DNA of 64,000 bases, from assembly GCA_016906335.1 (NCBI GenBank), contig JADEYG010000012.1:1178001-1242000 (forward strand). Reading direction: 5' to 3'. Under the pieces are notes generated by a model. That model was not told the origin of the DNA. It did not search any database and saw nothing but the letters and a program-made list of their open reading frames with translations. The first letter of the stretch is position 1. Each line of letters begins with the position of its first letter. The position numbers were made by a program, and so were the translations under genes. The DNA is from Novakomyces olei (taxonomy: Eukaryota). Positions 17,229-21,623 of this stretch are shown here, in pieces.

Positions 17229-17713
17229 TATCGCCGAATTCTAGCTCGTTTCGAGTCTAGTCTCTAGTTTTATAGAGTTATGTTTGCTGCTCTTTGCCAA
17301 TCAGCGAATTGCACTCCTTTGAGTTGCAGGTATGAGCGGCAAATACTGGCAGCAGAGATAGAGGACTATTATTGAGCACAAATGTCTTCCTCAAGTAGCT
17401 CAATTAGCTAATTGAGCAGCAAAAGTGGTTAATGTCCTCTTATTTCTGGGACTCCTCGCCTCGATTGGTAATTCCCAGACAGCCAATAAGAGAATATCAT
17501 TAGAATATTAGCGCATGTAATTAGTATTGTACGCCTTATCGGTAGAAAACCCTAGAGTTCTATTCAGCACACCGCATTACTTGATACAGATATCAAGTAT
17601 ATGGTTTACTCTTAAGCGGGCCCCGTGAGTGTATCATTTCTCGTACGAATAATAAGATAAATCATATTTTGTAGATAGACGCAAATATACTCCAAAAAAG
17701 TCGACTCGGTGCC

Positions 17714-18606
17714 ATGGACTACCAGGTAAGAAGCTCTTTCTACAACTCTATCTTACTAATGTTGTAGAACAGGGCCGGCAGCAAGTTTGGCGGCGGCGGC
17801 GTCGCCGGCGTTTCTGAGACTAACTTAAACCGCAGAGAACGGTTACGGAAGTTAGCGCTTGAAACGATAGATCTAGCAAAAGATCCTTATTTCATGAAGA
17901 ATCATCTAGGATCTTATGAATGCAAGCTGTGCTTGACTCTCCATGCTAATGATGGCTCCTATCTCGCACATACGCAAGGCAAAAAGCATCAAACAAACTT
18001 AGCTCGTCGTGCTACATTAGATCGCGAACGGGCAGCTCGACTAGGTGTAGCCAACCGCAATTTTGATGCTCTATCAGCCGCTGCTGCTGCTGATAGAGCT
18101 GCAGCCGGACCTGCAGCTTCTGCTGTTGCCGGAGGAAAAAAATCGTTCATAAAAATTGGTCGGCCCGGATACCGTATTATGAAGGTGCGCAGTAGGGAGG
18201 GCGAGGATACCCACAGTCCAGCTCAGGACGGAGTTTTCATACAAGTTTCTTTGCCAGAAATCGCACCGGGCGTGAAGCCTAGGCATAGGTTCATGTCTGC
18301 GTACGAACAGCGACAAGAACCTCCTGATCGAGAGTACCAGTATTTGATTATTGCGGCAGAGCCCTATGAGTCTATTGCAATAAAACTAGGTGAGTTTTAT
18401 CATATTTTAATTTATTTTAATCATTTTAAATCTATTAATAATAATGATTTATTTTATGGAATAAGCTAATCAGAATAGAGGCTCGAGAAATTGATCGTTC
18501 ACAGGGGAAATTTTACGAATACTGGGATTCTCCTAATTACTACATGCAATTTTTCTACAAGTCGCCTCGAGTGGATAATAAGATTTCTGCTGTTCCCGGT
18601 CTGTAG
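17714..18606 (+). CDS. PRP11: Splicing factor SF3a subunit 2 (Sap62/Prp11)
   Basis: MDYQ/NRAGSKFGGGG...RRERLRKLALETIDLAKDPYFMKNHLGSYECKLC; introns 17726-17767 and 18390-18478. Confidence 0.95.
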
Positions 18607-18912
18607 GAATACTGGCGATGTATTGTTTACGGAACTCGATTTATAATTATACTAGCGTAATAGATTTGATTTAAGTACGATTGGCCTAGGATGCATGACG
18701 ACAAGCATCACTACTTCCGGAATTGCAAGCTTTCATATTTTGTCTTCATATTCTATCATGTTTCAATGATGCAATTTGCATTGCTTTTAAAAAGCATTTT
18801 AAAATGCGTTAGAGTAGCAAAAACGTAATCAACTTCTACCAAGCCCCATTGTAATTATCCCAGTATATCGCTGCTTGTAAACCATAATATGTACAATAAG
18901 GTCCGAATGCGT

Positions 18913-19529
18913 CTAGTCGGTACTTGCGCAACCGTGGCAGCCTGATTGGTTAATAAATTATGGAATCTGTGCACTAAACTCACCACAATGAATACAGTCT
19001 ACTTCCGTATTGGCGTCCAATTTATGTTTTGGTACGCGGCATACGCACGTGTTGTTAAAGTTGGTCTCTGATGTCGCAATGCATTTTAGGCAGCAAAGTT
19101 TCTCATATCCAGGCTAAAGGTTAATATCGATTTTAAAGATCGACAAAGCTAGACTGCCCACCTTTTTCCACTTTGCTATAAGATTACCGTCCGCAAAACC
19201 TTGCTTAAGGAGCCAGTCATAAAGCTCCCGAGAAATAGCATCCCGGTTGTAGTAGAGATCATAGACGTAGCGAGACCGCTGATGATGTATCTGCATTATT
19301 TTATGTGTAAGCTGTACTTTGATCTTGTCGTGCCCAGGATCCGACTCGGCGTCTCGCATCTTGAGCGCAAATGCCTCCAAGGTGGGCGCGATTTTGTCAT
19401 AGCCAGCAGGTGCTCTGCTACGTTAGTCATCATAGGCTATAACAAATATCCTCACGGCCGCTTGCAGTAGGAAGAATCTAACTAAAAATAGCCTTACTTT
19501 TTCGTTCGTAAAGTCTTGATACGAGGCAT
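18913..19529 (-). CDS. BUD31: Spliceosomal protein Bud31/G10/Cwf14
   Basis: MPRIKTLRTK...HHQRSRYVYDLYY...KWKK/PGYEKLCCLKC...CIHC/GCHGCASTD; introns 19415(or 19418)-19497, 19114-19161, 18942-18983. Confidence 0.95.
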
Positions 19530-19573
19530 TTCAGCACCGATCGCTTCTCAAACTGATGATTTTGTGTCAATTC

Positions 19574-19640
19574 CAGTCACGTATAATGTGTCGAGAAGAA
19601 ATAGAAATGGTTATTAAAACGTTACCAGGGTTAGGGTTAG
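19574..19640. promoter_or_regulatory. Homol D-like CAGTCACG (19574-19581) plus telo-box/Homol E-like AGGGTTAGGGTTAG (19627-19640) in the BUD31/snoRNA-cluster divergent promoter
   Basis: Motifs read directly; the same motif pair occurs upstream of RPL21. Confidence 0.6.
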
Positions 19641-19857
19641 TCTAATTTATGTAATAGCAAGAGAATAAATCTAATTTTCTACGATTATACAAATTTAACT
19701 ATCTGTTGTAACTAACCCGTATGAAATATTAATTATAAAAAATTTGCATTGAACACAATCAATTGGTTTGCAGTGGCATTGCTCTTATTCAGCAAAGCTC
19801 CATTTTGAGATTGCTGTGATCAACGTTACGTTCGTGTAAGTTTCTATCTCGACTCTC

Positions 19858-19938
19858 GTTCCGAATGATGTAATTTACAAACGATAACTTTTGAGCTTCG
19901 GCTTTGATCGTTTCAATTAGCTCTAGAACTGACGGAAC
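19858..19938 (+). ncRNA. Box C/D snoRNA, predicted guide for the 18S A in UUCU-A-GAGCU (about A162, yeast numbering)
   Basis: Terminal stem GTTCCG/CGGAAC, C box ATGATGT 19865, D box CTGA 19929; 13-nt guide ATTAGCTCTAGAA complementary to conserved 18S TTCTAGAGCTAAT. Confidence 0.85.
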
Positions 19939-20034
19939 ATATTTGTTTTCCTTACCATTCTCTTTATACGCGCAGTTATTCTAACAATGTCAGCAGATCA
20001 CGCGTTTCATACAGTAAGTCATTCTGTGGCGGCA

Positions 20035-20140
20035 GCACTGTGGTGATGATGAAAAAGCCTTTCGTTTTAACGAGTCTCGACTGTTTAGTGATGACTAAAG
20101 CCTTTCAATACCAAAAGTTTCAGCCTTGTCTGAGCAGTGT
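20035..20140 (+). ncRNA. snR41: Box C/D snoRNA snR41 (18S Gm1126 guide)
   Basis: Stem GCACTG/CAGTGT, C box GTGATGA 20043, C' 20088, D CTGA 20130; guide AAGTTTCAGCCTTG complementary to 18S CAAGGCTGAAACTT. Confidence 0.88.
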
Positions 20141-20268
20141 CGTGCACGCCAATTTTTCGGGCTAGCTTGCTTACCACTAAAGCAAAAATTCCATAATGAT
20201 TCGATAATAAACGATCGGGTTATTCCTCCGTTTGTTTTCTACAAATTTCTCGAAGGTGAGTCTACAAG

Positions 20269-20380
20269 GGCCATATGATATGATGATTGCTCAAGACGTA
20301 CGGGCGGACTAAGCACCAGTTACGAATAATGTACAAGGAACTGGATTTGCTGCTGAGAAAAGTCTTTCTGATCATTGGCC
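20269..20380 (+). ncRNA. snR70: Box C/D snoRNA snR70 (18S Cm1639 guide)
   Basis: Stem GGCCA..TGA/TCATTGGCC, C box ATGATGA 20280, D CTGA 20368; guide ACGGGCGG before D' CTAA (18S CCGCCCGT); extra element TGTACAAGG in an internal hairpin. Confidence 0.85.
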
Positions 20381-20444
20381 TAATCGCATTTTGCTTTGAA
20401 ATTAAATTGACTAACTTTCTCAAGGTACGTATGCTCGCAGAGTT

Positions 20445-20546
20445 CTGTGCTCGGTGCTGATGAAATCTTAATACTGCGTATTCACACTGTCTGAAAATCA
20501 TTCGTGACGCAAAATCTTTTGGAGACCTTCTGAGCCGTTCGCACAG
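20445..20546 (+). ncRNA. snR51: Box C/D snoRNA snR51 (25S Um2729 guide at D')
   Basis: Stem CTGTGC/GCACAG, C box TGATGA 20458, D' CTGA 20491 with guide GTATTCACACTG (25S CAGTGTGAATAC), D CTGA 20530; the snR41-70-51 order matches the known yeast cluster. Confidence 0.85.
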
Positions 20547-20720
20547 GCCAAATTTTCTACAAAGCTAAACAAATAGGCATATTATTTGCAAAAGTCTGAA
20601 CTTTACTGGCTCAATTCTGTCCACTAGTCAAGGTTCTTGATACAAAGTAAGTCCTTAGTCAAACGGAATGTGAGCACACAAATTCTCGTTTATGTTCTTA
20701 TGAATACAAGTTTTGAGAAA

Positions 20721-20822
20721 GGCAGCAGAATGATGTAAACATGATTCGCTGCGTTCTTGCCAAGTGGGCTGTATTGCAGTCGTATGCAGATTATAATCAT
20801 CTTGGAGAACTGATTTGCTGCC
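20721..20822 (+). ncRNA. Box C/D snoRNA, dual guide for 5.8S (about A43) and the 25S C in UCU-C-CAAG
   Basis: 9-bp stem GGCAGCAGA/TTTGCTGCC, C box ATGATGT 20730, D CTGA 20810; 14-nt TTCGCTGCGTTCTT complementary to 5.8S AAGAACGCAGCGAA; ATCTTGGAGA complementary to 25S UCUCCAAGGU. Confidence 0.85.
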
Positions 20823-20876
20823 AAACTTTATTCATATATTTATTCATTTATATCGAATATCCTTTTAAGTTATCAG

Positions 20877-21623
20877 ATGGAAGTCGACCAGAGTAACGAG
20901 GCATGTGTTATGCCGGGAACTACCGTCTTAAATGTCCCGTCTAAAATCGATAACCCTCCTTTACGCCTAGGCCCCGGTCTCGTTCACCATATCGATGCCA
21001 AAACAGGAGACGTCACGGTTACAGCCAGCCGGGTGGGCATTCTACACCAGCCCAAACCGTTAACTCTAGGGTTAAGCACCCCATGCAAACGATATGTTGC
21101 CGGGCTTGGTGATTTTGTGGTTGGAAAAATTGTCTTTAGGCATTCGGAGGGATACAGAGTGGATATCGGAACAGCACAGTTGGCGAATTTGGGAATGTTA
21201 GCTTTTGGTGAACAAACTACGAGACGTTTCAAGCCCAATTTGCAAGTTGGTGACATTATATATGCTCGTGTTTCCTTGGCGCACAGAGACATCGAGACCG
21301 AGCTCGAGTGTTTTGATGCTACCACTGGAAAAGCAGGAGCTTTTGGTCATTTACAGGGCGGCTATGCTGTAGAAGGTCTAGATTTGCTTGTGGCGGCCGC
21401 CCTTTTCCAAAAGAGTAGCAGTATTCCTGCCTTACAAAGGCTCGGAGAGCAGTTTGCCTTTGAACTTTGTGTTGGCGTTAACGGTCGGGTGTGGATTAAA
21501 ACAGACGATTTTTCTCACACCGTTCTTGTTAAAAACACCATAGAAAATTGCCGTGGCATGACGTCTTCCGAATTATCGGAATACGTGGAACGCGAACTGC
21601 AGTCTATTGCAGAAAGGGGGTGA
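20877..21623 (+). CDS. RRP40: Exosome cap subunit Rrp40
   Basis: LRLGPGL, KRYV...GDFVVG, YRVDIG, KPNLQVGDIIYARV, ELEC, VGVNGRVWI motifs. Confidence 0.93.
   Translation: MEVDQSNEACVMPGTTVLNVPSKIDNPPLRLGPGLVHHIDAKTGDVTVTASRVGILHQPKPLTLGLSTPCKRYVAGLGDFVVGKIVFRHSEGYRVDIGTAQLANLGMLAFGEQTTRRFKPNLQVGDIIYARVSLAHRDIETELECFDATTGKAGAFGHLQGGYAVEGLDLLVAAALFQKSSSIPALQRLGEQFAFELCVGVNGRVWIKTDDFSHTVLVKNTIENCRGMTSSELSEYVERELQSIAERG

Follow-up and report, generated by a model that had tools for sequence, protein, structure and literature searches.

The locus and its genes

The window, a stretch of 64,000 nucleotides, is located on contig C12 of a fungal assembly of 14.3 Mb and 15 contigs. The genes around the studied feature follow each other in the order SF3A2 (+ strand), BUD31 (−), the snoRNA cluster (+), RRP40 (+) and a gene for a TruB-family RNA pseudouridine synthase (−). 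SF3A2 and BUD31, both splicing-factor genes, lie immediately upstream of the cluster (17705–19530 in the window), and the divergent BUD31 has its promoter region in common with the cluster. Together with Cef1, found at 52 kb, SF3A2, BUD31, RRP40 and the synthase gene after it make up a local run of RNA-processing genes. The best named protein matches, Schizosaccharomyces for RRP40 (43–46% identity) and Taphrina deformans for Cef1, suggest an early-diverging ascomycete as the source lineage.

20877..21623, + strand: RRP40 coding sequence, 248 amino acids, intact, single copy in the genome

The open reading frame had been assigned to RRP40 in an earlier note, and the assignment held: the Pfam domains RRP40_S1 (1.5e-25) and KH_6 were identified, and the S1 and KH domains, the conserved residues and the intact ORF of the Rrp40 exosome cap subunit are all present. 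The ATG at 20877 is the true start, since the N-terminus aligns with the Rrp40 proteins of Schizosaccharomyces and Lichtheimia. Also the region from box D of the preceding snoRNA to this ATG is open in the RRP40 frame (stop-to-stop ORF 20814–21623), with no upstream start in frame. The closest relative, P0001 (66% identity), is encoded on a 2.7-kb contig. A synteny search based on RRP40 gave one distant bacterial S1-like match among the genome contigs and none among the viral contigs. RRP40, an essential exosome subunit, must be expressed, and the question is from where.

The snoRNA cluster

The locus is the fungal snoRNA cluster III, composed of a U45-like snoRNA, snR41, snR70, snR51 and the U55-like Afu_294. 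The snoRNAs, the RRP40 ORF and their positions are established. snR41, snR70 and snR51 are arranged head to tail in the expected order, and the flanking U45 and U55 introns of the Euascomycete form are both present. Upstream of the last donor the cluster was divided into the following parts, the exons and introns being predicted.

19575..19740, + strand: likely host promoter in a motif scan, divergent with BUD31; Homol-D core AGTCAC at 19575, telomere-like AGGGTT at 19627 and 19633, TATAAAA at 19734
19770..19835, + strand: exon 1, without ATG; 5' end a guess based on the TATA; donor at 19836, 8.8 bits
19836..19993, + strand: intron 1, with the U45-like snoRNA at 19865–19932; acceptor 6.35 bits
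20014..20182, + strand: intron 2, with snR41 at 20046–20133; acceptor at 20182, 2.31 bits
20183..20255, + strand: exon 3, with a three-codon uORF; absent if intron 2 ends at 20255
20196..20207, + strand: uORF ATG ATT CGA TAA, read directly
20256..20424, + strand: intron 3, with snR70 at 20280–20371; donor 9.1 bits, acceptor 4.29 bits
20425..20576, + strand: intron 4, with snR51 at 20457–20533; donor 9.56 bits, acceptor 3.13 bits
20577..20646, + strand: exon 5, 70 nt, ATG-free; if spliced, it gives an A at −3 of the RRP40 start

The guides of the first, second, fourth and fifth snoRNA are complementary to the rRNA of the same genome. Those of the first, which we take to be U45 from its position in the cluster (PMC3596301), pair over 13 and 11 nt with the 18S rRNA. 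snR41 remained under the Rfam cut-off (26.8 bits) and has a 15-nt guide to the 18S, and snR51 has a 12-nt guide to the 25S. For snR70, no match of at least 11 nt to the expected 18S site was found in the genome's own rRNA; it was named by its position and by an 8-nt guide core, which is present upstream of U55 in most of the listed homologous loci with long flanks. The name U55 for the Afu_294 snoRNA is likewise presumed from position, and the AGGGTT boxes of the promoter are labelled telobox.

Introns 3 and 4 abut at 20424/20425 without an exon (4.29 and 9.56 bits), an arrangement known from fungal clusters. A second possible abutment is at 20255/20256, where the alternative end of intron 2 scores −1.22 bits; it would remove the exon with the uORF, which the earlier note had listed as a caveat and which is indeed present. 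Exons 1, 2, 3 and 5 include altogether one ATG in 229 nt, where other host exons would predict about 3.7 (P ~0.12). snR51 is here without the inserted intron B.

The Homol-D core was taken as given in PMC4138321, in the available part of which Homol-D drives snoRNA clusters in S. pombe. The U45 and U55 introns are reported as parts of the cluster only for Euascomycetes in the available text of PMC3596301, and described there as gains of that group. The five-snoRNA form (19836–20822) is present here in a genome whose best protein matches are in Taphrinomycotina, and the U45 and U55 introns of cluster III may be older than the Euascomycetes.

The U55-like snoRNA and the candidate last intron

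20647..20652, + strand: last donor GTAAGT, 9.84 bits, 81st percentile of 191 predicted donors
20721..20822, + strand: U55-like box C/D snoRNA (Afu_294), box C at 20730, box D at 20810–20813
20863..20876, + strand: candidate branch site TTTTAAG with acceptor CAG, branch A at 20868

Afu_294 is a genuine box C/D snoRNA: it exceeds the Rfam cut-off (44.3 against 43 bits) and its guides pair over 14 nt with the 5.8S and over 12 nt with the 25S rRNA of the genome. Its 9-bp terminal stem ends at 20822, which bears out the distance of 54 nt to the RRP40 ATG given earlier; from box D the ATG is 63 nt away. Direct reading also showed the GTAAGT at 20647, the CAG at 20874–20876 directly against the ATG at 20877 and the AAG ending at 20710 to be correctly placed in the earlier note.

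The branch A is at +55 and the acceptor CAG at +63 from box D, with 8 nt between branch and acceptor. There are only two AGs between box D and the ATG, and the better one is the acceptor on the start codon, so that the 248-aa ORF begins at the predicted last exon. The other, AAG at 20869, was rejected as an acceptor (−5.1 bits). Also CTGAT overlapping box D was rejected as a branch site, being inside the snoRNA and 56 nt from the next AG. Two AGs elsewhere outscore 20876, namely 20710 (−0.91 bits), the alternative acceptor of the earlier note, and 21069 inside the ORF (2.25 bits). The intron 20647–20876 contains seven ATGs, all of which would precede RRP40 if it were left unspliced. RNA folding of 20647–20900 was no better than that of shuffled sequences (z −1.16).

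Homologous loci in other fungi

A pattern scan of metagenome contigs recovered at least 115 homologous loci, 80 with flanks of up to 4 kb and 35 with flanks of up to 300 nt. These loci are probably mostly from Pezizomycotina, since the scan pattern was derived from an Aspergillus family. The geometry was compared among the 112 listed loci with 110 nt downstream, 73 of them distinct.

A branch motif and an acceptor follow the U55-like snoRNA in 71 of the 73 distinct listed loci. Among these 71, the branch A has a median position of +57 from box D (quartiles 54.5–59) and the acceptor of +69 (5–95% 62.5–87.5, range 49–106). The positions +55 and +63 in the window thus place the snoRNA at the conserved distance from its branch and acceptor among the listed matches. 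The donor-to-box-C distance is 84 nt, against a median of 41 nt in the listed homologues. The snR41 guide was found in 35 and the snR51 guide in 33 of the 36 distinct listed loci with 1.3 kb upstream, in the same order. The zero-exon count at the snR41–snR70 junction was uninformative, 24 of 32 listed loci being without a donor call, and the density of ATGs in the exon that precedes the U55 intron (23 of 32) was rejected as a measure because donors had been mis-picked in some loci. In seven loci (L004, L019, L023, L040, L083, L108 and L114) a further donor lies 15–20 nt or less after the U55 acceptor.

No synteny of cluster and RRP40 was found among these loci: RRP40, BUD31, SF3A2 and the TruB gene are encoded at none of the 115 listed loci, in a scan which recovered the window itself as a control. 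A Pfam-identified ORF is present within 1.8 kb in 16 of the 35 distinct listed loci with at least 900 nt downstream, a count from which intron-split genes can be missing. Eleven of these 16 ORFs are convergent, and five are on the same strand, starting 684–1340 nt after the acceptor. With the downstream ORFs convergent or distant and RRP40 at 0 of 115 listed loci, the last exon of the host therefore appears, as far as tested, to be non-coding elsewhere, and the link with RRP40 to be lineage-specific among the listed loci.

Splice signals of the genome

On 6% of the genome (864 kb) a gene model was self-trained without a branch term; it replaced a first heuristic intron finder which had yielded 30 noisy introns. 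Altogether 191 introns with strong donors and coding flanks were kept; they are predictions only, some of them wrong. A branch-plus-acceptor model was built on 186 of the predicted introns, with 455 decoy AGs for comparison.

The earlier observation that no CTAAC is present in 20647–20900 was confirmed. It is less telling than feared, because CTRAY occurs in the last 30 nt of only 111 of the 191 predicted introns. Other attested branch sites are TTAAY, CTTAY, CTAAA, CTCAY and CTAAG, mostly 6–9 nt from the AG; a TTAAG branch was found in none of the predicted introns scoring above 1 bit. AAG acceptors are common in the sampled 864 kb (about 17%).

The suspected weakness of the last branch site was borne out. 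The acceptor at 20876 scores −1.23 bits, corresponding to the 16th percentile of the 186 cross-validated predicted acceptors, and 16% of the 455 decoys score as high; values near −1.2 occur in predicted acceptors at about half the rate seen in decoys (0.086 against 0.18). Introns 1–4 have canonical splice signals with acceptors of 2.3–6.4 bits, and the best site after each of the 14 other cluster snoRNAs of the genome scores 1.9–7.9 bits. The acceptor at 20876 is the weakest of the 16 snoRNA-intron acceptors (14 in clusters, U18 and 20876 itself). In the U18 intron of EF1-beta, the end of which is fixed by the reading frame, the acceptor is at +67 from box D and scores 0.33 bits, and the distance from donor to box C is 142 nt; weak sites and long 5' spacers thus have a precedent in the genome. 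The splice signals alone leave the case open and lean slightly against splicing of the last intron.

The AG at 21069 reaches 2.25 bits, a score found in 2% of decoys, and the host could be spliced mainly to this site within the ORF, giving a non-coding product and leaving RRP40 mRNA to a minor route. Such splicing appears highly improbable: the site is 256 nt after box D, outside the 49–106 nt of all 71 listed homologues with a site, the intron would be 423 nt long against a 95th percentile of about 312 nt, and a site of this kind arises inside coding sequence by chance at such a rate.

Spacing, composition and start context

The earlier claim of little room for a separate promoter was substantiated. 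The shortest stop-to-ATG gap among the 39 predicted tandem gene pairs is 343 nt, so all 39 exceed the 63 nt between box D and the RRP40 ATG. The snR67 cluster ends 366 nt before its neighbour on the same strand, and clusters I and II of the genome end in canonical branch sites followed by non-coding exons with AATAAA.

The 51 nt before the CAG include 26 T and two G. Equally T-rich segments were found in 41 of 141 intron ends, in 19 of 252 post-stop segments and in none of 122 pre-ATG segments. Markov models favoured intron over pre-ATG sequence for this stretch by 8.6–10.8 bits (AUC 0.91) and over post-stop sequence by 5.5–6.4 bits, but over promoter-zone DNA (ATG −100 to −200) by only 2.0–3.3 bits, with 13–14 of the 122 promoter-zone segments being as T-rich. 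The RRP40 start context, in a weak model, is at the 6th percentile unspliced and at the 59th spliced. A YAG stands directly on the ATG in six of 122 predicted starts, and in one of 122 with an acceptor score at least that of 20876; CAG on the ATG is by itself a 5% event and only modest evidence for splicing. At another predicted start, on contig C4 of the same genome (G000; block 1000001–1040000, about 19810 nt in), a canonical branch site is followed by a CAG placed directly on the ATG; this represents either a 5' UTR intron with matching geometry or an internal exon. Taken together, spacing, composition and start context favour splicing onto the RRP40 ATG.

The same features bear on an explanation in which the U55-like snoRNA is terminal and exonic, the host transcript ends just behind it and RRP40 has a compressed AT-rich promoter. 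The branch site would then have decayed, or a short empty intron (20647–20710) would be removed first, and the RRP40 promoter would overlap the 3' flank of the snoRNA and leave a 5' UTR of 10–30 nt. The AG at 20710 would account for the large distance between donor and box C, none of the 69 listed homologues compared reaches the stem length of 9 bp (maximum 7), and the T-rich stretch resembles promoter-zone DNA and carries a TATA-like element, TATATTTA, about 42 nt before the ATG. Also some snoRNAs in cluster I of this genome lack a clear donor, and S. pombe has exonic snoRNAs at the end of its clusters II and III (snR61 and snR51-I; PMC4138321, Table S2, as far as available). However, terminator, promoter and 5' UTR would all be needed in 54 nt, where the shortest tandem gap is 343 nt (n = 39); no predicted start has an equally T-rich stretch directly before the ATG (0 of 122), the unspliced start context is poor, and the placement of CAG, on the ATG and at the site of the ancestral acceptor, would be coincidental. 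In the motif scan the 250 nt upstream of the RRP40 ATG gave no consensus TATA, no Homol-D and no telobox, although most predicted genes are without these motifs as well (TATA in 43 of 122). Two separate units, the main rival to splicing from the host, are a rather unlikely arrangement.

Quite improbable is an internal promoter upstream of or within exon 5, by which only the U55 intron would lie in the RRP40 5' UTR and the first four snoRNAs would come from a host transcript not necessarily reaching RRP40. It would draw on the same splice evidence as splicing from the whole host and would avoid the uORF of exon 3, and internal promoters occur in cluster V of N. crassa (available part of PMC2780460). 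Against it, AAATTTT at 20550 was the only promoter motif in 20540–20650, and the longer host would still require the same acceptor or a terminator.

Other snoRNA and rDNA observations in the genome

A pattern search for further intronic snoRNAs gave seven matches, against seven in the control; one of the matches was the snR67 cluster and one the cluster linked with RRP40. A candidate locus (L209) has a donor, box-like motifs and weak acceptors, and no Rfam snoRNA match. Rfam searches gave no match for snR64, snR71 or U24 in this genome. Cluster I (L117:890–1890, on G000:C3) has a box-like sequence at 893–975 before the first strong donor, a zero-length exon at 1280/1281 and snoRNAs at about 1643–1770 which come after an acceptor and have no clear donor themselves; it looks partly de-intronised.

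The 5.8S motif was found at 11 internal places on five contigs (C2, C5, C7, C9 and C12; including L212–L218), and all four checked places were 18S–5.8S–25S units. At C2:748–754 kb there is a single unit, flanked within 30 kb by long ORFs on either side. The rDNA appears to be dispersed, which would be unusual among fungi, barring a collapse of arrays during assembly.

Proposed explanation

The RRP40 mRNA is probably spliced from the snoRNA host, with the last intron ending on the RRP40 ATG. A rough probability of 0.6 was given to this explanation; the weights of the explanations are judgements and not computed posteriors. We infer every splicing event, the transcript ends and the inefficient splicing at the locus from sequence. 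A single Pol II transcript would start near 19770, have five snoRNA-bearing introns removed and end after RRP40. The last intron (20647–20876) would be the ancestral U55 intron, ending on the start codon because RRP40 would have taken the place of the non-coding last exon of the host. RRP40 would thus be expressed from the cluster promoter with its Homol-D core, telomere-like boxes and TATA, and every transcript spliced to completion would supply one RRP40 mRNA, its leader about 230 nt long, besides five lariat precursors of snoRNAs. Owing to the weak branch site the last splice is probably inefficient, which would scale the strong snoRNA promoter down to the needs of an exosome subunit. The earlier idea of RRP40 mRNA as a co-product of snoRNA splicing thus stands as the best single reading of geometry, spacing, composition and start context, while its acceptor is weak.

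The exosome trims lariat-derived snoRNAs, and Rrp40 is one of its cap subunits (available part of PMC10557570). The further idea that exosome supply is coupled to its snoRNA substrates through feedback is speculation. The weak branch site would act as a sensor giving negative feedback on the core exosome subunit Rrp40: transcripts failing the last splice would be polyadenylated after RRP40, and the nuclear exosome would trim them back across the coding sequence of RRP40 as far as the U55 snoRNP, destroying its own message while maturing a snoRNA. If exosome activity fell, the pre-mRNA would live longer, more of it would be spliced and Rrp40 would rise. Such a loop, built by gene capture into a conserved snoRNA polycistron, is considered unlikely, because the arrangement is not conserved in the listed loci. 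Since the arrangement is absent from the 115 listed homologous loci, it is explained equally well by a strong ribosome-biogenesis promoter having captured a neighbouring gene by chance.

If splicing from the host is true, a polycistronic snoRNA host described as non-coding in fungi such as S. pombe and N. crassa has, in one lineage, come to serve as the leader of an essential gene. The locus would then exemplify how a gene that moves into a host's last exon can lose the promoter it had, and would offer a compact natural test of exosome levels tied to snoRNA output through splicing competing with decay. Without such a junction, promoter and terminator overlap unusually tightly at a locus that is otherwise ordinary.

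Comparison with known systems

Read-through splicing takes place between the human U17HG/SNHG3 and RCC1. U17HG/SNHG3 lies upstream of RCC1, and its snoRNAs are also described as intronic in RCC1 (PMC7601244 and PMC10538263, in the parts available). A non-coding snoRNA host is thus directly upstream of a protein gene as in the window, but the snoRNAs are of the H/ACA type, RCC1 is not known to have a role in snoRNA trimming, and the two are also described as separate units.

In the available text of Luo et al. 2013 (PMC3596301), cluster III is described as U45–snR41–snR70–snR51–U55, with a host without protein-coding potential. The window has the same order, one snoRNA per intron and abutting introns without an exon; it differs in having the ORF of an essential gene where the last exon would be and an snR51 uninterrupted by intron B. 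Fungal polycistronic snoRNA hosts are described as non-coding in the accessible parts of PMC3596301, PMC2780460 and PMC4138321, and that of PMC5824354 includes nothing further on cluster III hosts. A literature search, in which subscription journals mostly fell outside, found among the papers listed no report of a snoRNA cluster co-transcribed with RRP40.

In NOP56–SNORD86 cis autoregulation (PMC11028025) and with the decay-promoting introns of S. pombe (PMC4695336), both shown experimentally according to the parts available, how much host protein is present depends on a snoRNA intron or on a slow intron that competes with decay by the exosome. They are the models for the feedback considered above, in which the sensor would be the exosome itself and not a snoRNP protein or Mmi1.

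Four species of the Candida clade carry snR79 within an intron of a 5' UTR (PMC5033589), and UTR-intron snoRNAs of protein-coding genes are present in S. pombe (PMC4138321). As in these hosts, a C/D snoRNA is in the window predicted to be released from an intron of an mRNA leader. In contrast, the Candida and S. pombe hosts carry single snoRNAs (or two in a 3' UTR) instead of a conserved five-snoRNA polycistron, and those named in the available texts are not exosome subunits. If the junction is real, the arrangement would be a lineage-specific variant of this known UTR-intron snoRNA hosting.
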